Shown piece by piece: positions 11,542-44,390 of a stretch of DNA of 64,000 nucleotides. Each line of letters begins with the position of its first letter. Position 1 is the stretch's first letter. A model generated the notes under the pieces. That model made no database searches and was not told the origin of the DNA. It saw only the letters and a program-made list of their open reading frames with translations. This DNA comes from an uncultured Acidimicrobiales bacterium. GTDB taxonomy: Bacteria > Actinomycetota > Acidimicrobiia > Acidimicrobiales > JAHEJN01. A program made the translations under genes and the position numbers. The stretch lies in NCBI GenBank assembly GCA_963787285.1, contig CAWBCM010000001.1, positions 32,914-96,913 on the forward strand, read 5' to 3'.

Positions 11542-12931
11542 TCAGACCTCACCGTTCTTGATGGACTGGATCATGGCGGTGACCTGGTCGTAGATCTGTC
11601 GTCGTTCGGCCATCTGCTTGGAGATCTTGTCGACGGCGTGGATGACCGTGGTGTGGTCGCGGCCCCCGAACTCTCTCGCGATGGCCGGGTAGCTGAGGTC
11701 GGTGAGCTCACGGAAGACGTACATGGCGATCTGGCGCGCGGTCACCAGCGGCCGATGCCGTCGGGCACCCTGGATCTCCTCGAGGGTGAAACCGAACTTC
11801 TTCTGTGTGGCCTCGAGGATCAACTCGGGAGTGACGGGCCGCGGCTGGCGGGCGTCGACGATGTCGCGGAGAACGTCCTGGGCCAGATCGGCATCGAGGG
11901 GCTTGTTGGTGAGACTGGCATAGGCGCACACCCGGATGAGCGCTCCTTCGAGCTCTCGGATGTTCTCGGTGATGTGGGTGGCGATGAATTCGAGCACGTT
12001 GCGCGGCACCGGCACACCGGTGGATTCCGCTTTGCGGCTGAGGATGGCGAGGCGCGTCTCGAGGTCGGGCGGTTGGATGTCGGTGATGAGACCCATCTTG
12101 AACCGGCTGCGGAGCCGGTCTTCGAGGGTGGAGATCGCATCGGGAGGTCGGTCGGAGGAGATGACGATCTGACGATTGGCCTGATGGAGCGTGTTGAAGG
12201 TGTGGAAGAACTCCTCCTGGAGACCCTCCTTGCCCTCGATGAACTGGATGTCGTCGACCAGCAGGACGTCGATGTCGCGGTATTTGCGTTTGAAGTGTTG
12301 TCGGGTATTGGTGCGGATCGCGTCGACGAACTCGTTGAGGAAGGTCTCGGTGCTCACGTACTGAACGGAGTACTCCGGGTAGTTCTCGATCACATAGTGC
12401 CCGATGGCCTGGAGGAGGTGGGTCTTGCCCAGTCCGGCGTCGCCGTAGATGAAGAGCGGGTTGTAGGACTTCGCCGGCGTTTCGGCGACGGCGAGCGACG
12501 CCGCCTGTGCGAAGCGGTTGGACTGGCCGGTGACGAAGGTCTCGAAGGTGTACCGCGGGTTGAGCGACCCCTCGATGACCGGGCCGCCGGCGCTGGCCGA
12601 TGGCCGATCGTCGACCACCACTTCGGGCTCGACGAGCGCAGCGATGTCGTCTTCGCGGGCACCGAACTCCGGGCGCACGTCGATGACCAGATCGAGGTGG
12701 GCCGCCCCGGCGGTCGACGAGCGCGTCGCGCACCAGGCTGAGGTAGCGCCCTTCGACTCGTTCCTTCACGATGGCATTCGGTACCGACAACACGAGCGTT
12801 TCGTCGACGACCCCGATGGGCTGGGCGTTGTTGAAGGTCGACTGCCAGACCGCGTCGGAGACCTCGGCTCGAATGGTTGCTGCGCACGACTGCCACACAG
12901 TTCCGGGATCGATGTCGTTCACAAAGGGCAT
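11542..12931 (-). CDS. dnaA: Chromosomal replication initiator DnaA, with an apparent +1 frame break at about 12703-12712
   Basis: Domain I ([24 protein letters not shown]...[11 protein letters not shown]) is in the frame of ORF 11708..13126, starting at ATG 12931. The linker plus AAA+ and DNA-binding domains ([15 protein letters not shown] ... [11 protein letters not shown]) are in ORF 11542..12678. The span is 1390 nt, which is 3n+1. Confidence 0.9.
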
Positions 12932-12981
12932 CCTGACTGCAGCGCGACGGCCGAAGACAGCCAAGCTACGGGACGTCGACG

Positions 12982-13013
12982 GCATCCACAACAGCGTCCA
13001 CACGTGTGGAAAA
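12982..13013. promoter_or_regulatory. DnaA-box trio upstream of dnaA
   Basis: GCATCCACA (12982), GCGTCCACA (12994) and TGTGGAAAA (13005) lie 50-80 nt upstream of the dnaA start. This is consistent with autoregulation or a second origin flank. Confidence 0.55.
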
Positions 13014-13174
13014 CTTCGGGTCTGCTCGTCATGGAGTCTTTCCTGCCGTACCCGGAACTCGTCGCGCTTTGACCACGGTGTGGGGTCGTTCACGAGCGAA
13101 GAGGTGAGGACTCGGGAACCTAGCACCCGATCTGCGGAGGCGCCAGCCCGACGGGCAACGCTCGTTTGCCCAGT

Positions 13175-32852: not shown

Positions 32853-32976
32853 GCCTCGACCATCGCCCCATTGGCCCGCGACCGGCAACGACCCGGCAGG
32901 TAATGGTCGAATCGGTCGGCCGTGACGACCTCGGAGGTAATTGCGGCGATTCAGGAACACCGCGAGGGTTGGTCGC

Positions 32977-33774
32977 ATGACCTCGGCCCTCCCGTTCGGC
33001 GACGCGCTCCGCCATTGGCGCACGGCGCGACGTCGCAGCCAACTCGAGCTGGCCAACGCCGCCGACGTCAGCCAGCGCCACCTGTCGTTTCTCGAGACCG
33101 GCCGGTCGAGGCCGAGCCGGGAAATGGTCGTGCACCTCGCCATCGCGCTGAACCTCGGACTACGCGACCGTAATGCGCTGCTCGTCTCGGCCGGGTTCGC
33201 CCCCGCGTACACCGAGTCGGCTCTGGACAGTCCCGACCTGGACGAGGTGCGAGGCGTGCTGCAGCAACTGCTCGATGCCCACGGCCCGTTCCCGGCCTAT
33301 GTGGTCGACCGGCAGTGGGATCTCGTCCTGGCCAACGAGGCCGCGATGGCACTGACCGCGCTGTTCGACCCGAACCGCCTCATTACCCGGGTCGGTCCCA
33401 ACGTCATGCGGTTGCTGTTGCACCCCGACGGCGCCCGCCATGCCATCGCCAACTGGCCCGAGGTCGCCGAGTACACGCTGCGTCGACTGGTGCGCGAGGT
33501 GGTCGACCGGCCGGGCGACACGGCGGCTGCAGCTCTGCTCGCCGAGGTCGTCGGCTACGAGGGAGTGCCCGATCCCGACGCCACTCCGGCGTTGCCCACC
33601 GGTGACGAGCTGCTCATTCCCGTGGTCGTGGATCTCCCATCGGGAGACCGGGTCCGACTGTTCACCACGATCGCCACGATCGGTGCGCCCTTCGACATCA
33701 CCCTCGAGGAGCTTCGCATCGAGACGTTGCTTCCCGCCGACGCCGCGTCGGCCGACCTGCTGCGTCGGCTCTGA
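32977..33774 (+). CDS. MmyB-like XRE-family transcriptional regulator
   Basis: An HTH (LRHWRTARRRSQLELANAADVSQRHLSFLETGRSRPS) is followed by an MmyB-type ligand-binding domain (PAYVVDRQWDLVLANEAA). ATG 32977 lies in ORF 32941..33774. Confidence 0.85.
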   Translation: MTSALPFGDALRHWRTARRRSQLELANAADVSQRHLSFLETGRSRPSREMVVHLAIALNLGLRDRNALLVSAGFAPAYTESALDSPDLDEVRGVLQQLLDAHGPFPAYVVDRQWDLVLANEAAMALTALFDPNRLITRVGPNVMRLLLHPDGARHAIANWPEVAEYTLRRLVREVVDRPGDTAAAALLAEVVGYEGVPDPDATPALPTGDELLIPVVVDLPSGDRVRLFTTIATIGAPFDITLEELRIETLLPADAASADLLRRL

Positions 33775-34459: not shown

Positions 34460-34927
34460 ATGGAACCGGAGACGTGGGGCTTGGTCTGGCTGATCGCAGC
34501 AGCCGTGTTCCTGGGTGGCGAGCTGGTTCTCCCCGGGTTCATTCTCCTGCCCTTCGGCATCAGTGCGGCGTTGGCCGCCGTCCTCGGCTTCATGGGCGTG
34601 TCCCCCGCCATCGGGTGGCTGGTGTTCATCTTCGGTGGGTTGCTCGGGTTCGGCATTCTCTGGAAGTTCGCCCGCGAGTCACTGAAGGGCATTCCCATGC
34701 CGTTGGGTGTGGGCGCCGACCGTCTCGTCGGCATGCGCGGAACCATGGTCGGCGAGATCATGGGTGGTGCCACGGGCCGTGGCATGGTGCGCCTCGGTTC
34801 CGAGGAATGGCGGGCCGAGTCGGTCGACCGTCGTCCCATCGCCAACGGCGTCGAAGTCGAAGTCATCGAGGTGAAGGGGACGGTCGTCAAAGTACGCACC
34901 GCCAACTCCTTCCAAGGAGAGTTGTAA
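34460..34927 (+). CDS. NfeD family membrane protein
   Basis: 155-aa ORF with N-terminal TM helices and a C-terminal OB-fold (GMVRLGSEEWRAES..VEVIEVKGTVVKV). It lies immediately upstream of an SPFH gene. Confidence 0.85.
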   Translation: MEPETWGLVWLIAAAVFLGGELVLPGFILLPFGISAALAAVLGFMGVSPAIGWLVFIFGGLLGFGILWKFARESLKGIPMPLGVGADRLVGMRGTMVGEIMGGATGRGMVRLGSEEWRAESVDRRPIANGVEVEVIEVKGTVVKVRTANSFQGEL

Positions 34928-35908
34928 ATGGTCGGTCTCATCGTTCTCGGCATCATTGGTGTCGGCCTCATCGTCTTCCTGGCGGCGGCGGTCAAAATCG
35001 TGCGCCCCTACCAGCGGGGCATCGTCGAACGACTCGGCAAGTACAAGGCCACCATGGAGCCGGGGCTGCACATCCTGGTGCCGTTCATCGACACGATGAA
35101 GTTGGTCGACATGCGCGAGCAGGTCGTCGACGTTCCGCCTCAGGAAGTGATCACCGCCGACAACGTCGTCGTGTCGGTCGACGCGGTGGTGTTCTACGAA
35201 CCCACCGATCCTCAGCGACTCGTGTACAACATCGCCAACTTCGTGCTGGCCATCACCAAACTGGCCCAGACGAACCTCCGTAACCTGGTCGGCGATCTGC
35301 AGCTCGATGCCGCGCTCACGTCTCGCGACACCATCAACACCACGCTGCGGAACATCCTCGACGACGCCACCGACAAGTGGGGCGTCCGGGTGGTGCGGGT
35401 CGAGATCCAGCGCATCGATCCGCCCGTCGACGTCATGAACGCGATGCACGAGCAGATGAAGGCCGAGCGCACCCGCCGTGCCACCGTCACCGAGGCCCAG
35501 GGCTTCCGCGAGGCCGAGATCACCCGATCCGAGGGCGACAAGCAGTCGCGTATCCTTCAGGCCGAGGGTGTGCGCGAATCGGCCATTCTCGAGGCCGAGG
35601 GCGAGGCCCAGGCGGTGCGGACCCGAGCCGAGGCAGAGCGCTTCCGCCTCGAGCAGGTCGCCGCCGGTACCGGCGAGGCCACGCGGCTCGAGTTCCAGGG
35701 CATCCATGCCGGTGCGCCCGACTCTCAGCTCCTGGCGGTGAAGTATCTCCAGGCCCTGGCCCAACTCGGCGACGGCCGAGCCACCAAGCTCATCGTGCCG
35801 GCCGACTATGCCGGCATACTCGGCGCGGTCATGGGCGTGGCCGAGGCCATGCGCGACGACGTCGACGACGACGACCTCACCACCCTCCCACCCCCGCCCG
35901 CCGACTAG
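34928..35908 (+). CDS. SPFH/band-7 (stomatin-like) protein
   Basis: 326-aa ORF with motifs [31 protein letters not shown] and a coiled-coil EAEGEAQA region. Confidence 0.93.
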
Positions 35909-36038: not shown

Positions 36039-36968
36039 ATGCGGGCCGATACCGAAGCCTTCGCGGTCATGAGCCGCCAGTACGGATTGATCAGCCGCCG
36101 CCAGGCCATCGACGCGGGGGTATCGACCTGGGCCATGTCGCGGCGGACCAGAACCGGCGAATGGGTGCGCCAAGAGCCGGGCGTGTACCGACACCGGGCC
36201 TATCCGGCGTGCTGGCACGCCTCACTACTGGCAACCTGCCTCCGCACGGGCGGTGTCGCCAGCCGGGCCTCGGCCGGGTGGCTCTGGAAGCTCGATGGAA
36301 TCGCACGATCCCGACCAACGGTGGTGGTCGGTGCCATGGGATCCATTCGATCCGAAACCGTGCGGGTGCACGAGTCGGTCCAGTTCGATGGCATCGTCGC
36401 CGTTCTGCGCGACGGGATTCCGTGCACGCCCATCAGTCGCACGCTGATCGACCTCGCCGGCGTTGTGCGTTGGTCGCGATTCGAGGCCGCCGTCGATGAC
36501 GCTCTACGACGAAACCTCGTCGACTGGCCCGACCTTCTCGACACGTATCGGAGGTTGGGTCGGCGCGGCCGGAACGGCTCTGGCGCCTTGCGCAGACTGC
36601 TCGACGAGCGCTTCGGTGACGACGTGATTCCCCGCTCGGTGTTCAGTCGTTTGGTGGCCCAGCTGCTGATCGACCACGGGGTTCCGGCCCCCGAGCTCGA
36701 GTACCCCGTGCCGATTCCGGGCTGGCGAGCACCCGCTCACGTCGACCTCGCCTATCCGAAGAGCCGCCTGGCCATCGAACTGCAATCGGTGAGGCATCAC
36801 CTGGGTCGCGAACCCTTCGAGAAGGACGCGCTCCGTGCCGCTGGTGTCGCGGCCACGGGTTGGCGGTGGCTTCCCATCACCTACCGCATGTACCGCGACG
36901 AGCCGACCCGAGTGGTGGACTGCGTCCGCCACGCCTTGCTCACCACCCCAAATCCCCACGGTCAGTAG
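36039..36968 (+). CDS. DUF559 / AbiEi-N-like domain protein (endonuclease-related fold)
   Basis: 309-aa ORF. The N-terminus (GLISRRQAIDAGVS...) resembles AbiEi/transcriptional-regulator N-domains. The C-terminus (VDLAYPKSRLAIELQSVRHH) is DUF559-like. GAGGAG RBS is present. Confidence 0.8.
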   Translation: MRADTEAFAVMSRQYGLISRRQAIDAGVSTWAMSRRTRTGEWVRQEPGVYRHRAYPACWHASLLATCLRTGGVASRASAGWLWKLDGIARSRPTVVVGAMGSIRSETVRVHESVQFDGIVAVLRDGIPCTPISRTLIDLAGVVRWSRFEAAVDDALRRNLVDWPDLLDTYRRLGRRGRNGSGALRRLLDERFGDDVIPRSVFSRLVAQLLIDHGVPAPELEYPVPIPGWRAPAHVDLAYPKSRLAIELQSVRHHLGREPFEKDALRAAGVAATGWRWLPITYRMYRDEPTRVVDCVRHALLTTPNPHGQ

Positions 36969-38016: not shown

Positions 38017-39381
38017 TCAGAAGCCCTGGTTGACGATGACGCCGTAGTCGGGCAAGCGGAACAGTCCCGGCCGGCGTACCACCATGTCGGCGGCTTCGAT
38101 TGCCGTGCACTTGAACAGCTGGATGTTCCTGGCGATGGCGCCGGCGACGCGCGGCGCGGCAAAGGACGTGCCGCTCCACATGGCCCAGCCGGTGAAGTTG
38201 TCGGGGTCGGGAAGGTCGGTGCCGGCGGGTTGATCGAAGCCGCCGTCCCAGGTGAAGAACTCGCTGATCACGTCTTCGCCCGGGGCCGATGCATTGACCC
38301 ACGGCCCGTGGTTGGAGAACCAGGACGGACCACAGGCCCCGACGGAACCGACACCGATCACCTCGGCCATGGCCGCGGGGAACGCCGGTCGACAATCGCC
38401 GTCGTTTCCTGCCGAGCCCACCACCACCACCCCGGCACAGGTGAGGAGGCGAATGCGGTCGGCCACCAACGGTGGAGGTGTGTCGTCGGCGTAGTAGCCC
38501 GAGAGCGAGAGGTTCACGATGGCCTGCTCGAGCACCCCGGCGGCCGACCACTCGTCGAACAGCGTGGTGAGCGCCTCGGCGAGGTCGCTCTCCTGGGCCA
38601 CGCCGAGATTGTCGACGACGCCGATTCCGCGAAGCGACGCGACAGCCCGGGGTGCGGCTCGCCGCACGATGCCCTGGATGAAGCCGTTGTGGCCGGCTGC
38701 CGGATCGAGGATGTCGTCGGCAAGGGGGTCGGGGAGCTCGAAGAGGTCGCCGCTCGGCAGCTTCCACTGGCCGACGACGCTCGCTCCGGGCGGAACCTTC
38801 GTGAAGCCCGTGTCGATGACCGCTACCACGGGTTGACCGGTACCGGCCGGGAGCTTCAGGTCGAACGGCGCCGCCGGCGGCGCGTAGGGGCGAGCGGTGC
38901 TCCGCTGGTTGAAGGTCATGGGGTCGGCGACGATCTGGCCGTTGAAGGTCATGGGCGCGGCGTAGTACGCACCGTTGAATGTCATCGGGTTCGCCATGTA
39001 GGCACCGTTGAAGGTCATGGGGGCGGCCGTGAGCCCGTCGATCAGGTACGACACGTCGACCGATGCGTTGAAGTCGGCCCGGTTGAGCGCGGTCACCACC
39101 TCGGGCACATCGGTTGCCCGATCGAGTTCGAGCATCACGAAACCGCGGCGCCGGGCCACCCTCACCTCGCCATTGGTGATCTCGGCGACGAGGCGGCGAC
39201 CACGAGCCCCCAGTGCATCGAGCTCGTCGGCGGGTGTGTCGTGGTCGGCGATGAGCAGGACGCGGCCGGGTTTGAACAGGTACGGGCCGAAGGGCCCGGC
39301 GCCTACGGCAAGGTCGGGCACCCGCGGCTCGGGCTCGGGGCCGCTGCCGTCCTTGGGTGTGGTGTCGTCGATTTCCGCCAT
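38017..39381 (-). CDS. S8 (subtilisin-like) serine peptidase with I9-like propeptide and no signal peptide
   Basis: ATG 39381 (GAGGAGAG RBS) lies in ORF 38017..39609. The triad context is VVAVIDTGF (Asp), AAGHNGF (His) and WSGTSFAAPRVAG (Ser). The N-terminal 115 aa resemble a subtilase prodomain (YLFKPGRVLLIA...VVTALNRA). Confidence 0.92.
   Translation of the reverse strand: MAEIDDTTPKDGSGPEPEPRVPDLAVGAGPFGPYLFKPGRVLLIADHDTPADELDALGARGRRLVAEITNGEVRVARRRGFVMLELDRATDVPEVVTALNRADFNASVDVSYLIDGLTAAPMTFNGAYMANPMTFNGAYYAAPMTFNGQIVADPMTFNQRSTARPYAPPAAPFDLKLPAGTGQPVVAVIDTGFTKVPPGASVVGQWKLPSGDLFELPDPLADDILDPAAGHNGFIQGIVRRAAPRAVASLRGIGVVDNLGVAQESDLAEALTTLFDEWSAAGVLEQAIVNLSLSGYYADDTPPPLVADRIRLLTCAGVVVVGSAGNDGDCRPAFPAAMAEVIGVGSVGACGPSWFSNHGPWVNASAPGEDVISEFFTWDGGFDQPAGTDLPDPDNFTGWAMWSGTSFAAPRVAGAIARNIQLFKCTAIEAADMVVRRPGLFRLPDYGVIVNQGF
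38890..39021 (-). repeat. 4 x 33-bp in-frame tandem repeat encoding PMTFNG-type 11-mers
   Basis: The protein reads PMTFNGAYMAN-PMTFNGAYYAA-PMTFNGQIVAD-PMTFNQRSTAR. The DNA core CCGTTGAAGGTCATGGG recurs with a 33-bp period. Confidence 0.85.
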
Positions 39382-39410
39382 GGGCTCTCCTCGGTTCGTG
39401 CCTCGTGAAC

Positions 39411-39432
39411 GAGTCGGAACCGGTTCCGACTC
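39411..39432. promoter_or_regulatory. Perfect 22-bp palindrome in the S8/CHAT divergent intergenic region (operator candidate)
   Basis: GAGTCGGAACC|GGTTCCGACTC is centred in the 83-bp gap between ATG 39381 (minus) and ATG 39465 (plus). Confidence 0.6.
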
Positions 39433-39464
39433 GCCGCCCTGGCCGCGACCGTATTGTCTCCAGC

Positions 39465-42128
39465 ATGAGCGTGCCCGTCGAAGACCCCGAACTCGAGCAC
39501 GCGCGCCGCGCCGTGGCGCTACGACAGAAGGATCCTCACGAGGCTGCGGCCATGGCCGAGGCGGTGTTGGGCAGCGAATCGTGTTCACCGCGGGCCCGAG
39601 TGGTGGCACTGGTGGCCAAGGCGTTGGCGGTGCGCGAGCTCAACGACCTCGCCGCCGCCGAGGAGCTCCACGACCAGGCGATCGCCGTGGGGACCGAACA
39701 CGGGCTGGTCGACGAGGTGGCGAGGGCTCGCAGCGCACTGGTGGGTTTCCTCTGCGAGGTGGGTGACCCGCTGCGGGCTCTGGCCGAAGCCGACCTCGCT
39801 GCGTCCCACCTGAATGCACACGAGCAGGCCGAGCTCGACATGCGTCGAGCCAACGCGCTGCGCCGCATGGGGCGCATGTCCGAAGCGGTCGATGCCTATA
39901 CGGCGGCCGTCGAGGTGATCGACGCGTCCGCCGATGTCGTCGGCAGGGCGCGGGTGTACTGCAACCGTGGAGTGACCCTTGCCTTCGCCGGCCGTCACGA
40001 CGAGGCGGTGGCCGACTTCGTGCTCGCCGAAGACCTCGCAGCCGGCACCCACCAGCACCTGCTGGCTGCGGGCGCAGCCCACAACCTCGGCTTCGTACAC
40101 GGTCGGAGGGGCGATATCGTCGCCGCGCTCGAGGCCTTCGACCGGGCGAGAGTGTTCTACGAGACCATCGGGTTTCCCGGCCGTTCCCGTGGGGTGTTCG
40201 AGGCCGACCGCTGCGCGGTGCTGTTGTCCGGTGGGTTGTTCGACGAGGCGCGAGCCGCGGCCCGAGCCGGTGTCGACGCGTTGGAGGCTGTCGGCGATCA
40301 GGTCGATCTCACCGAGGCACGACTGTTGTTGTCGCGGGCGAGCCTGGCCGCCGGCGATCCGCAAGAGGCGATCGGGCAGGCATCGCTGGCGCTCGTGGAG
40401 TTCGAACGATCAGGGCGGTTGCGGTGGGCGTCGGTTGCCCGACTGCTCGTGTTGCGGGCGCGAGCAGAGCTCGGTGACACGAACGGCTGGAACGACGAGG
40501 CCGCCGAGGTCATCGCCGCGCTCGCCGACCACGGCTGGACCACCGAGGCCGACGAGTTGCGCATCTTCGGCGCCGAGATGGCCCTGCGTGCGGGCGACAC
40601 CCGCCGAGCGCGCCGCTTGCTGCGACAGGCTGCGGCCGCCCGGCGCAACGGCCGCGCCGATCACCGTGCCCAGGCCTGGCGGGCCGCGGCCCTGCTACGG
40701 CTCTCGACCGGTGATCGCGTGGGGGCCTTTGCCGCGATCCGGGCCGGCCTGCGGGTGATCGACGATCACCGCGCCCTGCTCGGCGCAACCGAGCTCCGGG
40801 TGGGTGCGTCGAGTCATGCCGCGTCGCTCGCCCGCATGGGCCAGACGATGGCCCTCGAGGGATCGCGGCCGGCGGCGGTGCTTTTCTGGGCCGACCGGCT
40901 GCGCGCCGCGGCGCTCGACATGCCGACCACTCGACCACCCGACGACGACATCATGGCCGACGAGCTCGCCGCCCTGCGCGTGGCGACCGACGACCTCGTC
41001 GCAGTTCGTCTCGACGGAGGCGACGACCGCGAGCAGCTCCGGTTGGTTCGATCGCTCGAGACCACCATCCGCGATCGAGCGCGTCGAGTATCGGTGGCGG
41101 GCACCTCGACCGACGTCGCCGTCACCGTGCGTGATGTGCGGCGCGAGCTTCCGCACGGCTGTTTCGTCGAGTACCTCGAGGACGGCGGACGGCTCCACGC
41201 CGTCGCCGTGTCGGGACGAACGGTTCGGCACGATCTGGGTCGGGTCGACGACCTGGCGGAGGGCATCGACGACCTGCACTTCTCACTGCGGCGATTGGCG
41301 TCGGGCCACGGCAGCCCGGCCGCCAGGCGGGCAGCCGCCGACGCCATGATCGACTCGCTCGCCCAGCTCGGGCGGGTCCTGATCGACCCCGTGGTGACTG
41401 CCACCGGACCGGTCGTCATCGTGCCGACCGGGGCGCTGCATACGGTTCCCTGGGCGGCGCTGGCCTCGTTGCGGGGCCGCTCGGTGACCGTCAGCCCGAG
41501 CGGTTCGCTGTGGCTCGGCGGTCGGCGCTCGACTGCCGGCGGCGCCGGCCTCGCGCTCGTGGCCGGGCCCGACCTTCCTGGCGGACGGACCGAGGTGAGA
41601 CGCTTGCGCCGGGTGAACATCGCGTCGACGGTCCTCACCGGCCGCAACGCCACGGTTGCGGCCACCCTCGCGGCCCTGGCCACGGCCCACACGGCCCACA
41701 TTGCGGCCCACGGGCACTTCCGGGCCGACAGTCCGATGTTCTCCTCGCTGCGGCTGCACGACGGGCCGCTCACCGTGTACGACCTCGAAGGGCTGCGGGC
41801 GGTGCCCGACACGGTGGTGCTGCCGGCCTGCGACGCCGGCGTGGCCGATGTGCGGGCCGGCGACGAGCTGATCGGCACCACCAGCGCACTGCTGGGACTC
41901 GGTGTGGCCACGGTGATCGCGCCCATCGCCCCGGTGTCCGATTCCCACACGACCGCGGTGATGCTGCGGTTGCATCGCCTGCTCGCCGCCGGTGTCGAAC
42001 CGGCGGTCGCGCTGGCCGAGGCTGTTGCGCCGTGCTGGGAGAGCGACGACCCCGCCGATGCCGCAGTGGCCGCCGCCTTCACCTGTTTCGGGGTGAATCG
42101 CGGCGTAGAGGTATCACCGGGCACCTGA
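39465..42128 (+). CDS. CHAT-domain (caspase-like) protein with N-terminal TPR-like helical repeats
   Basis: ATG 39465 lies in ORF 39357..42128, giving 887 aa. The first roughly 450 aa are Ala/Leu-rich repeat helices. The C-terminal CHAT region has HIAAHGHF (His) and VVLPACDAG (Cys). Confidence 0.9.
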   Translation: MSVPVEDPELEHARRAVALRQKDPHEAAAMAEAVLGSESCSPRARVVALVAKALAVRELNDLAAAEELHDQAIAVGTEHGLVDEVARARSALVGFLCEVGDPLRALAEADLAASHLNAHEQAELDMRRANALRRMGRMSEAVDAYTAAVEVIDASADVVGRARVYCNRGVTLAFAGRHDEAVADFVLAEDLAAGTHQHLLAAGAAHNLGFVHGRRGDIVAALEAFDRARVFYETIGFPGRSRGVFEADRCAVLLSGGLFDEARAAARAGVDALEAVGDQVDLTEARLLLSRASLAAGDPQEAIGQASLALVEFERSGRLRWASVARLLVLRARAELGDTNGWNDEAAEVIAALADHGWTTEADELRIFGAEMALRAGDTRRARRLLRQAAAARRNGRADHRAQAWRAAALLRLSTGDRVGAFAAIRAGLRVIDDHRALLGATELRVGASSHAASLARMGQTMALEGSRPAAVLFWADRLRAAALDMPTTRPPDDDIMADELAALRVATDDLVAVRLDGGDDREQLRLVRSLETTIRDRARRVSVAGTSTDVAVTVRDVRRELPHGCFVEYLEDGGRLHAVAVSGRTVRHDLGRVDDLAEGIDDLHFSLRRLASGHGSPAARRAAADAMIDSLAQLGRVLIDPVVTATGPVVIVPTGALHTVPWAALASLRGRSVTVSPSGSLWLGGRRSTAGGAGLALVAGPDLPGGRTEVRRLRRVNIASTVLTGRNATVAATLAALATAHTAHIAAHGHFRADSPMFSSLRLHDGPLTVYDLEGLRAVPDTVVLPACDAGVADVRAGDELIGTTSALLGLGVATVIAPIAPVSDSHTTAVMLRLHRLLAAGVEPAVALAEAVAPCWESDDPADAAVAAAFTCFGVNRGVEVSPGT

Positions 42129-42143
42129 CGCGCTCATGTACGC

Positions 42144-42746
42144 ATGCAACGCGCCCCTGCCAACGGCCTCCTACAGTGCCCACCTGTGAACCGACGGTCC
42201 GATTCGAACGCGGAGCTGTTGCGGGCAGCGACCGAGGGCAACGCCTCGGCCTGGAACGAGCTGGTCGAGCGATACGGCCGTCTCGTGTGGTCGGTCACCC
42301 GCTCGTTTCGGCTCGACGAGGCCGCCGCGGCCGACGTCTCCCAGACCGTCTGGCTCCGCCTCACCGAGAACTGCACCAAGATCACCGATCCTTCGAAGCT
42401 CGCTTCGTGGCTGGCCACGACCACCCGCAACGAGTCTCTCCGGGTGGTGCGCCAACGACAGCGGACCCAGCCGTCGGATCTCATCGACGAGGGACCGGAC
42501 CTGCTGGCTCGGCCCGTGGGTGATCGCCTACTCGACGACGAGACCATCGGCGAGGCCATCGACGCGTTCGTGCAGCTGAGCGACGACTGTCGCCAGCTCC
42601 TGCGTCTGCTCTGTGCGGTGCCCCCGATCGACTACGCGACCATCTCCGACATCACCGGTCGACCCATCGGAAGCATCGGACCCACACGGAGCCGGTGCCT
42701 CGATCGGCTGAGAGTCAACATGGCCCGAGCGGCGGGAGAGAACTGA
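42144..42746 (+). CDS. ECF-type sigma-70 family RNA polymerase sigma factor
   Basis: 200-aa ORF with region 2 (WNELVERYGRLVWSVTRSF..DVSQTVWLRL) and region 4 (IDYATISDITGRPIGSIGPTRSRCLDRLR). An alternative start is GTG 42186. Confidence 0.88.
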   Translation: MQRAPANGLLQCPPVNRRSDSNAELLRAATEGNASAWNELVERYGRLVWSVTRSFRLDEAAAADVSQTVWLRLTENCTKITDPSKLASWLATTTRNESLRVVRQRQRTQPSDLIDEGPDLLARPVGDRLLDDETIGEAIDAFVQLSDDCRQLLRLLCAVPPIDYATISDITGRPIGSIGPTRSRCLDRLRVNMARAAGEN

Positions 42747-43195
42747 TGAACGACGAACCCGACAACGAACTGCTCGCCCTCCTCGGTCGAGCCATCGATG
42801 CGACCGACCCGATCCCCGATCAGGTGCTCGACGCAGCCAAGGGCGCCTACGCCTGGTTCGGCATCGACGACGAGCTCGCTTCGCTCAGCTTCGACTCGAT
42901 GACCGAGGAGCTGGCAGGGGCACGGTCGGCCACCACCTCGGACCGCCAGCTCACCTTCACGAGTCCCGGCGTCGAGGTGGAGCTTTCCCTCATGGGTGAC
43001 GGCGAACGCCGACTGATCGGCCAGTTCACCCCTCCCGCCGAGGCCACCATCGTGCTCGAGACCACCGACGCCACCCGTGAGACCACCGCCGATCACCTCG
43101 GGCGGTTCCGCTTCGCCGACGTGGCCGGCGGGCTCCTCCGTCTCACGATCGTCTCCGGCGCCACTCGGGTGAAGACCGAGTGGATCATCGTCTGA
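42746..43195 (+). CDS. Hypothetical 149-aa protein translationally coupled to the sigma factor (candidate partner/anti-sigma)
   Basis: ATG 42746 overlaps the sigma TGA (TGATG) and lies in the frame of ORF 42695..43195. It has an N-terminal helical part (ELLALLGRAIDATDPIPDQVLDAAKGAYAWFGIDDELA) and a C-terminal beta-rich part (GRFRFADVAGGLLRLTI). Confidence 0.75.
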   Translation: MNDEPDNELLALLGRAIDATDPIPDQVLDAAKGAYAWFGIDDELASLSFDSMTEELAGARSATTSDRQLTFTSPGVEVELSLMGDGERRLIGQFTPPAEATIVLETTDATRETTADHLGRFRFADVAGGLLRLTIVSGATRVKTEWIIV

Positions 43196-44129: not shown

Positions 44130-44190
44130 TGTTTCGTCTCCCACGGGAACGGCGGTACGCGCCGAACGTAGCCGAAACCAGCGGTGGGGG

Positions 44191-44275
44191 CGGAGGGAGG
44201 GGGATTCGAACCCCCGGGACCTTGCGGCCCGCTGGTTTTCAAGACCAGTGCAATCGTCCGCTCTGCCATCCCTCC
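44191..44275 (-). tRNA. tRNA-Ser (anticodon UGA)
   Basis: The reverse complement reads GGAGGGATGGCAGAGCGGACGATTGCACTGGTCTTGAAAACCAGCGGGCCGCAAGGTCCCGGGGGTTCGAATCCCCCTCCCTCCG. It has a long variable arm and a CTTGAAA anticodon loop. Confidence 0.93.
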
Positions 44276-44390
44276 GCCGACGAGGCTAGCGGTGGGCACG
44301 GCCCCCGTCGTTCCCCTCCCGTTCTGGTTGAGCACCGCCATGCCAGACAGTGCGCATGCTCCACCAGATCGCCGAGGGTGGAGGGAGGGG

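Follow-up and report, generated by a model that had tools for sequence, protein, structure and literature searches.

How many times does a protease zymogen need the motif that joins its prodomain to its catalytic domain? Subtilase zymogens are the textbook example of a single autoprocessing junction. The question is raised by a gene coding for a peptidase of the S8 (subtilase) family, located on the minus strand of a 64,000-nucleotide stretch of DNA from an uncultured Acidimicrobiales bacterium (contig CAWBCM010000001.1, positions 32,914 to 96,913; hereafter the window, numbered from its first letter), in which the junction is occupied by four tandem 11-residue units. In contrast to the textbook zymogen, the junction is reiterated here, up to 17 times among related proteins, with the copies held identical by selection and the cores of the units diversifying between lineages. 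The repeated motif is genuine, has been conserved and is subject to selection; a subtilase zymogen in which the junction motif is both reiterated and linked to a partner is a new form of a known type.

The answer proposed here, to which a little less than an even chance is given, is that the array represents an amplified propeptide-tail (autoprocessing) motif, read by the tetratricopeptide repeat (TPR) domain of a partner protein encoded next to the protease, either as a tether or as released peptides. This reading builds on the architecture of the zymogen, its conservation across the family, the purifying and concerted selection acting on the units, the genetic linkage to TPR proteins, and a polymorphic block that spans the array. 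The repeat array marks a large undescribed family of proteases, which may signal or dock through their motifs.

The junction of the S8 zymogen

The S8 gene and its parts are distributed as follows.

38017..39381, minus strand: S8 (subtilase) gene, 454 amino acids (open reading frame list, Pfam, identical database protein P0001)
39043..39309, minus strand: I9-like prodomain, residues 25-113 (AlphaFold2, Foldseek)
38890-39021, minus strand: S8 repeat array, four units of 11 residues with a common PMTFN core (translation, DNA period)
38989-39021, 38956-38988, 38923-38955 and 38890-38922, minus strand: the individual units of the array
38887..38901, minus strand: conserved S-T-A-R-P motif, residues 161-165 (start of the confidently modelled catalytic domain)
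38020..38904, minus strand: catalytic domain, residues 160-454 (Pfam, conservation, AlphaFold2, Foldseek)
38812-38814, 38689-38691, 38404-38406 and 38164-38166, minus strand: codons of the catalytic residues D190, H231, N326 and S406, respectively

The open reading frame spans 38017-39609 on the minus strand with a likely start, MAEIDD, at 39381, and its 454-residue product is 100% identical to a database protein (P0001) already called in public assemblies. The protein belongs to the S8 family according to Pfam PF00082 (Peptidase S8; 49.8 bits versus a cutoff of 21.8), and the triad D190 (IDTG), H231 (AGH) and S406 (GTSF), together with the oxyanion residue N326, is invariant in 41 homologues. 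The prodomain is modelled by AlphaFold2 in the order β-α-β-β-α-β, with a predicted local distance difference test (pLDDT) of 81-97. The best Foldseek matches in the PDB, aligned over 420-490 columns, consist of unprocessed pro-subtilisin E (3whi), PCSK9, pro-Tk-subtilisin and fervidolysin. Since the matches 3whi, 2e1p, 1r6v and PCSK9 cover both the prodomain and the catalytic domain, the N-terminal domain is an I9-like prodomain by fold. The I9-like prodomain announced in a preliminary description of this DNA, made from the letters alone, thus holds by fold and not by sequence, PF00082 being the only Pfam match of the protein at E<=0.01, with no match to Inhibitor_I9. The succession of prodomain, repeats and catalytic Asp that it proposed is correct as judged by translation, AlphaFold2 and Foldseek.

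Residues 121-164, translated from the minus strand, read PMTFNGAYMAN, PMTFNGAYYAA, PMTFNGQIVAD and PMTFNQRSTAR, preceded by SVDVSYLIDGLTAA and followed by PYAPP and, later, by VVAVIDTGF. A 17-nucleotide DNA core, CCGTTGAAGGTCATGGG, is matched four times with <=2 mismatches, at 38906, 38939, 38972 and 39005, at a spacing of exactly 33 bp, and no further match occurs in the whole window (0.02 expected by chance). Together with Tandem Repeats Finder (period 33, 2.7 copies, 77% matches, 38939-39027), this spacing bears out both the 33-bp periodic DNA repeat and the four tandem 11-residue repeats previously claimed at the junction. Exact repetition is limited to the five-residue core PMTFN, encoded with synonymous differences only (CCC/CCG, ACC/ACA, GGT/GGC), and the six-residue spacers are all different. 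The spacer of the fourth unit, QRSTAR, merges into the conserved S-T-A-R-P motif that opens the ordered catalytic domain. When the motif block was searched against 5.8 billion proteins, one candidate shared words with it and none scored.

The AlphaFold2 model of the whole protein has a pLDDT of 84, which falls below 50 for residues 116-158 and recovers from about residue 159, so that the array is predicted to be disordered. At the S-T-A-R-P motif, where the pLDDT rises to 87, P165 never varies among the 41 homologues, and S161, A163 and R164 are conserved in 90% or more of them. An alignment with thermitase (query residue 163 corresponding to chain residue 10) places the canonical mature N-terminus near residue 154, and A-R-P165-Y166 matches S-V-P5-Y6 of subtilisin BPN' in an alignment made by eye. 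From the model and these two alignments, the array fills exactly the stretch between the last strand of the prodomain and the mature N-terminus.

Arrays across the family and selection on their units

A profile search of 1.84 billion representatives yielded 2,371 clusters at E<=1e-30, mostly of Acidimicrobiia, and the family thus comprises at least this number. The homologues belong principally to Ilumatobacteraceae, besides other Acidimicrobiia, and some to Mycobacteriales, Solirubrobacterales, Nitriliruptoraceae and Dehalococcoidia. A Pro-containing tandem array of 2-17 copies occurs at the same junction in 242 of the 284 distinct N-terminal regions (~85%). Depending on the protein, the arrays have the following periods.

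Period 5: 148 proteins, 75 distinct units, median of 6.4 copies, up to 17
Period 6: 17 proteins
Period 7: 5 proteins
Period 10-12: 69 proteins

The units open with [N/S/D/T]-P and usually have a period of 5, e.g., NPVYA, SPVYA and NPFYA, with the consensus [NS]-P-[FLVM]-[YHRW]-[AGS] for the 75 distinct pentapeptides. The 11-mer of the window is a rarer variant, which resembles hexamer units such as NPITFS and NPATFA. Across the family, the arrays are followed by the conserved motif (Y-x-x-T-G-x-R-x-)S-S/T-A-R-P. In distant relatives devoid of repeats, the junction contains one P-x-W/Y-x-G-G-P motif, in a segment that is ordered (pLDDT 69-88) in the relative that was modelled, and the array can therefore be regarded as an amplification of this ancestral junction motif. 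The orthologues aligned, as the preliminary description had proposed, have kept the repeat, contrary to the loss that it had named as a refutation. Assignment to the pentapeptide-repeat proteins (PF00805, β-helix) was rejected: nearly all members, including those of the five-residue type, list PF00082 only in precomputed Pfam annotations, and the pLDDT below 50 of the window's array was also counted against a β-helix of this type.

Selection on the units was assessed in 62 arrays defined by Pro periodicity alone. Codon differences between units comprise 2,404 synonymous and 421 nonsynonymous changes, i.e., 85% synonymous, versus 25% expected for random single-base changes in the same codons, which indicates that the units are old enough to have diverged as DNA and have been kept identical as peptides. 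Among the closest orthologues of the window's protein, the spacers are conserved position by position, e.g., x-Y-Y-x-A and x-I/L-V-x-D, and the cores have switched jointly in all four units (PMTFN, PMSFS, PMHFA, PVRFN). In the orthologue L006, the Ser that replaces the Thr of the window is encoded by TCG in three units and by AGC in one. At least two independent mutational routes are thus required, which fits parallel selection better than gene conversion; such mixing of the Ser codon classes TCN and AGY within arrays was found at only 1 of 26 array positions. A similar concerted change distinguishes P0029 from P0031, whose catalytic domains are 93% identical and in which His-to-Arg and Ser-to-Thr replacements affect all three units. 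The number of copies behaves differently: the same unit occurs in 3 to 14 copies among relatives, so that the length of the array is labile and the sequence of the unit within a protein is not.

These data render a neutral, slippage-prone, low-complexity insert devoid of function hardly credible. Short tandem DNA repeats, variable copy number and predicted disorder are what such an insert would display, but the synonymous excess between units contradicts neutrality, the array persists across more than 2,000 clusters in several orders, and the spacers are conserved position by position in orthologues that are only 53-62% identical; rescuing neutrality by gene conversion with biased repair is disfavoured by the TCG/AGC split. 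The copy-number-variable linker suggested in the preliminary description is consequently retained with respect to its variability (2-17 copies) and abandoned as a neutral linker, which the purifying selection on the units excludes.

A structural role is another way to account for the units. The combination of an Asx or ST turn with Pro, to which the [N/S/D/T]-P at every unit start corresponds, is a classic one, and repeats of this kind in an array predicted to be disordered or extended could form a semi-rigid or elastic linker which does nothing more than set the distance between prodomain and enzyme. That this would be the sole function is improbable, taking into account that positions 3-5 are also under purifying selection and switch in concert, and that the length a spacer should preserve is not conserved.

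Several peculiarities of the arrays may be added. Many members, e.g., L005, L017, L029, L048 and L064, possess a Cys-rich stretch that adjoins the array on its upstream side or interrupts it (CxCCxPHPA, GGCCCCGGG, CGCGCC), absent from the window's protein, which could be a metal- or redox-binding element. A subgroup of 550-564 residues (P0085, P0089, P0094-P0096) contains 4-5 copies of the heptapeptide units NPVGGKT, NPYGGKT and NPFGDKT, followed by a different motif, GSGGRQVV. Runs of N inside arrays (L038, L052) and apparent frameshifts in the N-terminal region of S8 (L011, L014, L055, L061, L077) probably reflect errors that assembly or long-read sequencing made in the repeats, and not pseudogenes, and these loci were left out of the counts. 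Viral contigs contained no family members, only catalytic domains 25-36% identical, and none were found in plasmids.

TPR partners, a polymorphic block and the proposed reader of the array

The genes that accompany the S8 gene in the window are located as follows.

39382..39464, no strand assigned: intergenic region separating the divergent S8 and TPR-CHAT genes (gene coordinates)
39465..42128, plus strand: TPR-CHAT protein, 887 amino acids from MSVPVEDP (Pfam CHAT E=1.1e-28, TPR_12 E=2.3e-13)
42144..42746, plus strand: ECF-type sigma factor, 200 amino acids (Pfam Sigma70_r2; NCBIfam sigma70-ECF 58.5 bits versus a cutoff of 42.9)
42746..43195, plus strand: conserved protein of ~150 amino acids (conserved in 39 loci)

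The neighbouring TPR/CHAT protein mentioned in the preliminary description is borne out by the Pfam matches; its TPRs are N-terminal and its CHAT domain, with the motifs HIAAHGHF and VVLPACDAG, is C-terminal. In nearly every locus with enough flanking sequence, a large TPR protein is encoded beside the 5' end of the S8 gene, in one of two arrangements. In type A, which includes the window, the TPR-CHAT gene is directly adjacent to S8, from which it diverges in all repeat-bearing loci of this type, and the genes for the ECF sigma factor and the ~150-residue protein, coupled to each other, lie on either side of the pair. In type B, which represents ~40% of loci, the partner is a Guanylate_cyc-NB-ARC/AAA-TPR protein of ~900 residues (cyclase-STAND-TPR), devoid of a CHAT domain, whose gene directly precedes S8 in the same orientation and frequently overlaps its start. 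Both types place the TPR-coding end of the partner gene against the end of the S8 gene that codes for the prodomain and the repeats. TPR-CHAT homologues adjoin S8 in 49 loci, with the sigma gene co-occurring in 39.

The sigma gene ends in a stop codon that overlaps the ATG with which the next gene starts (window 42744-42748), an arrangement that suggests translational coupling. The ~150-residue protein consists of an N-terminal helical region and a C-terminal β domain, with a weak match to CarboxypepD_reg, below cutoff, as its only hit; it may be a previously unrecognised, putatively soluble sigma partner with an anti-sigma role. No signal peptide, transmembrane or hydrophobic segment occurs in the S8, TPR-CHAT, sigma or small proteins (the hydropathy maximum of S8, 1.48, is internal), and all four are accordingly taken to be cytoplasmic.

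Two explanations other than a TPR-read array meet this neighbourhood directly. In a protease cascade, the CHAT (caspase-like) protease encoded nearby would cut the repeats and thereby free the S8 enzyme from its prodomain. A CHAT protein with His and Cys motifs is indeed encoded next door in the module type of the window, and TPR-CHAT proteases are known to cut specific partners, as Csx29 does with Csx30 (PMC10028731). The type B loci, however, pair such arrays with a partner that has no CHAT domain, and no Arg, Lys or Asp is conserved at a fixed position of the unit, so that a cascade appears quite improbable. A product similar to ribosomally synthesized and post-translationally modified peptides, or otherwise exported, would have the units serve as natural-product or pheromone core peptides, released by the fused protease and leaving the cell. 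The strict identity of the units does resemble polyprotein precursors, and multi-core precursors cut by S8 proteases exist, e.g., the tandem Phr propeptides (PMC11343458). The lack of a signal peptide nevertheless makes export very improbable, as does the absence of a conserved transporter or modifying enzyme from the neighbourhoods examined; the model of the cyanobactin PatA/PatG protease (NCBIfam TIGR03895), a candidate also rejected as a family assignment, gives 21.7 bits versus a cutoff of 421.

An indication of a link between core and partner comes from a comparison of loci at the DNA level. L089, with the core DPMRF-SS, and L090, with the core DPMKL-AG, are 99-100% identical from ~15 codons past SSTARP through the S8 catalytic domain, the sigma gene and the small protein gene, but only 50-70% identical over the part of S8 that codes for the prodomain and the repeats, across the intergenic region, and within the opening 300 codons of TPR-CHAT. 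The two alleles co-occur in one metagenome sample, a contig from the sample of L090 carrying the L089 allele. Two further alleles on the same catalytic backbone, P0048 and L093, extend the series, the cores DPMRF-SS, DPMKL-AG, DPMRL-GS and DPMKV-SS being found on catalytic domains that are 98-100% identical. Compared with the more distant L094, the S8 catalytic, sigma and small protein genes are 79-91% identical, the whole of TPR-CHAT 59-75%, and the S8 prodomain and repeats 55-62%. Divergent cores on near-identical catalytic domains imply that the core does not track the active site of S8 and travels with the TPR side. The divergent stretch corresponds to positions 2150-2650 of L089, the contigs ending on the left side of the block, and divergent alleles also occur in L092, L093 and L094. 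The type B pair L013/L020 shows no sharp polymorphic block and has a uniform identity of 85-90%.

It is here that a purely intramolecular control of the zymogen has to be weighed, in which pseudosubstrate or autoprocessing sites would fill the S8 cleft in turn and tune the severing and trimming of the prodomain, the TPR partner being uninvolved. The array lies at the junction and apparently derives from a single junction motif, and its units, hydrophobic or aromatic and then small, are compatible with subtilase specificity. There is also a precedent, the short Pro-containing propeptide motif LIPY/F, which inhibits intracellular subtilisins (PMC6220982). Such a control is nevertheless rather unlikely: it leaves the TPR neighbour unexplained, there would be little reason for every one of up to 17 units to be under strict selection if any single cut were enough, and different cores are found on alleles whose catalytic domains are 98-100% identical. 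Should it apply, it would still be a new mode of zymogen control.

The reading favoured here, that the partner's TPR domain reads the array, starts from the same chemistry. In pro-subtilases, a substrate-like propeptide tail occupies the active-site cleft and is cut in cis. The array would be an amplification of this C-terminal tail motif, i.e., a string of identical short linear motifs in the disordered linker of the zymogen, and the TPR domain of the adjacent partner would read it as a multivalent tether. Another possibility is that the S8 domain cuts one core after the other, between the hydrophobic or aromatic residue and the small one that follows, and thereby frees identical peptides, up to three 11-mers in the window and up to ~16 pentapeptides in relatives. 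By either route, activation of the S8 zymogen would be coupled to the output of the partner, namely the CHAT protease, the ~150-residue protein and the ECF sigma factor in loci of the window's type, and the cyclase-STAND NTPase in the other; this coupling, and the direction in which the signal would run, are proposed from the arrangement of the genes. That the cores are subtilase cleavage or cleft-binding sites is suggested by their position, their derivation from the junction motif and their hydrophobic-then-small pattern, and the TPR domain would be the common reader that forces the units to remain identical. A bolder version, in which the linker would be a polyprotein of penta- to undecapeptides freed inside the cell upon activation as ligands of TPR sensors, with a pherotype-like allelic specificity, is unlikely.

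Among the three roles envisaged in the preliminary description, docking to the TPR/CHAT protein gains the most new support, owing to the strict linkage to TPR proteins of two unrelated architectures and to the polymorphic block; a reiterated cleavage site would find its support in position only, from the start of the array, the mature N-terminus and the single motif of repeat-less relatives. If the motifs are TPR ligands, they would represent a new bacterial way of turning protease activation into a graded, allele-specific intracellular signal, and would assign a function to the unannotated gene pairs, thousands in number, that combine an "S8 family peptidase" with a "CHAT domain" protein in Acidimicrobiia and in Actinomycetota related to them. 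The S8 gene is tied to TPR sensor proteins that would drive a caspase-like protease and a sigma factor, or a cyclase-STAND NTPase.

Several points weigh against a TPR-read array. Units such as NPWGA, NPASI and NPLRS fit the classic P1 preferences of subtilisin poorly, and AlphaFold2 docks no repeat confidently. Pairs with the same unit were also compared, for the identity of their TPR domains, with pairs that differ in their unit and are equally similar in the other domain; the trend in the predicted direction was small and came from few, non-independent pairs. Between L048 and L057, the variable block comprises the N-terminal ~230 codons of TPR-CHAT and the whole S8 gene, the catalytic part included, and such blocks could result simply from the genes lying side by side, or from a hotspot of recombination in the repeats. 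Finally, repeat-less relatives retain the module of S8, sigma, small and CHAT genes, in a different order in genomes of the Streptosporangiales type, so that the array is not required for the partnership and the module is older than the array.

Other traces of a specific recognition were sought. Substrate mimicry was rejected: 3- and 4-mers of a locus's unit show no enrichment over other loci in the TPR-CHAT, sigma, small or STAND protein that the locus itself encodes, and the conserved RQ(L/V)TF segment of the small protein does not co-vary with the core. The segments of the S1, S2 and S4 pockets, compared by eye with the unit type, displayed no interpretable co-variation, phylogeny being a confounding factor. 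One repeat-less module (L087) contains a third type of protease, a Trypsin_2 serine protease gene located after TPR-CHAT at 12061-13074.

Relation to known systems and further neighbours of the module

With the pro-subtilases, such as pro-subtilisin E, pro-subtilisin BPN', pro-Tk-subtilisin and PCSK9, the window's protein shares a docked prodomain, an intact Asp-His-Ser triad and a tail leading to the mature N-terminus. The known enzymes are secreted and have a single junction, whereas here a disordered linker carries 2-17 copies of the motif, the signal peptide is missing and the gene is tied to a TPR partner. The intracellular subtilisins resemble the window's protein in being cytoplasmic subtilases with a Pro-containing hydrophobic/aromatic motif N-terminal to the catalytic domain, but that motif is single, in a short N-terminal extension without an I9 domain (PMC6220982). 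Membership of this group was rejected, as the window's S8 sequence has no LIPY/F motif and possesses a full prodomain, to which the tandem array is added.

Phr propeptides, which occur as tandem duplicates, are cut by S8 proteases and recognised by TPR receptors (PMC11343458, PMC5199041), and the Rap-Phr/RRNPPA systems accordingly resemble the present one in their tandem units of 5-6 residues, which diversify between lineages, their S8 protease and their TPR protein. However, their precursors are separate small secreted proteins, cut outside the cell and re-imported, whereas the units described here lie inside the zymogen of the protease itself, among components that all appear to be cytoplasmic; the place of the Rap/HTH (helix-turn-helix) regulators is taken by TPR partners of the CHAT or cyclase-STAND kind, and the release and binding of peptides are here only proposed. 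The family was rejected as an assignment given that the units are part of an S8 protein without a signal peptide and that TPR-CHAT has only a generic TPR similarity to RapJ (E=0.053).

The type III-E Craspase associates the TPR-CHAT protein Csx29 with Csx30/Csx31 and the ECF sigma factor RpoE (PMC10028731). The likeness, a TPR-CHAT protease encoded with an ECF sigma factor and small partners, suggests a protease-gated release of sigma, but Craspase has no S8 component. The window's TPR-CHAT protein matched no Csx29 chain of the PDB at E<=1, and Craspase membership was rejected; neither a Cas7-11 gene nor a CRISPR array was noticed in the part of the window that was read, no dedicated CRISPR search having been made. 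Also rejected were the mycosins of type VII secretion (NCBIfam TIGR03921, 60.6 bits versus a cutoff of 278.75) and membership of a defence system, for which PADLOC returned weak subtilase and BovA matches only.

The comQXP and agrBDC pherotype loci combine a hypervariable block of signal and receptor with near-identical downstream signalling genes, and their alleles coexist in one population. The block described above is likewise sharply bounded, on the one side that could be mapped, but the gene families are entirely different and allelic specificity is here only proposed. The literature searched, with subscription journals outside the coverage, yielded no account of the array, of the module or of the S8/TPR pairing, which within the same limit agrees with the earlier remark that the repeat is not recognisable from described subtilases.

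The neighbourhood of the module in the window is housekeeping-like. A tRNA-Ser gene (anticodon TGA; 44188-44276, minus strand) lies between an esterase gene and a prephenate dehydratase gene. The S8 gene is followed by a methyltransferase gene, ~1 kb past which an AbiEi_4 gene (AbiEi antitoxin-like HTH) occupies 36039-36968 on the plus strand; an AbiEi_4-like gene also occurs near the module of L090, in a different position. Positions 34460-35908 of the plus strand code for an NfeD-like protein and then for an SPFH/Band 7 protein, the usual membrane-scaffold pair, and further upstream, at 32941-33774, an MmyB-like HTH regulator is encoded.

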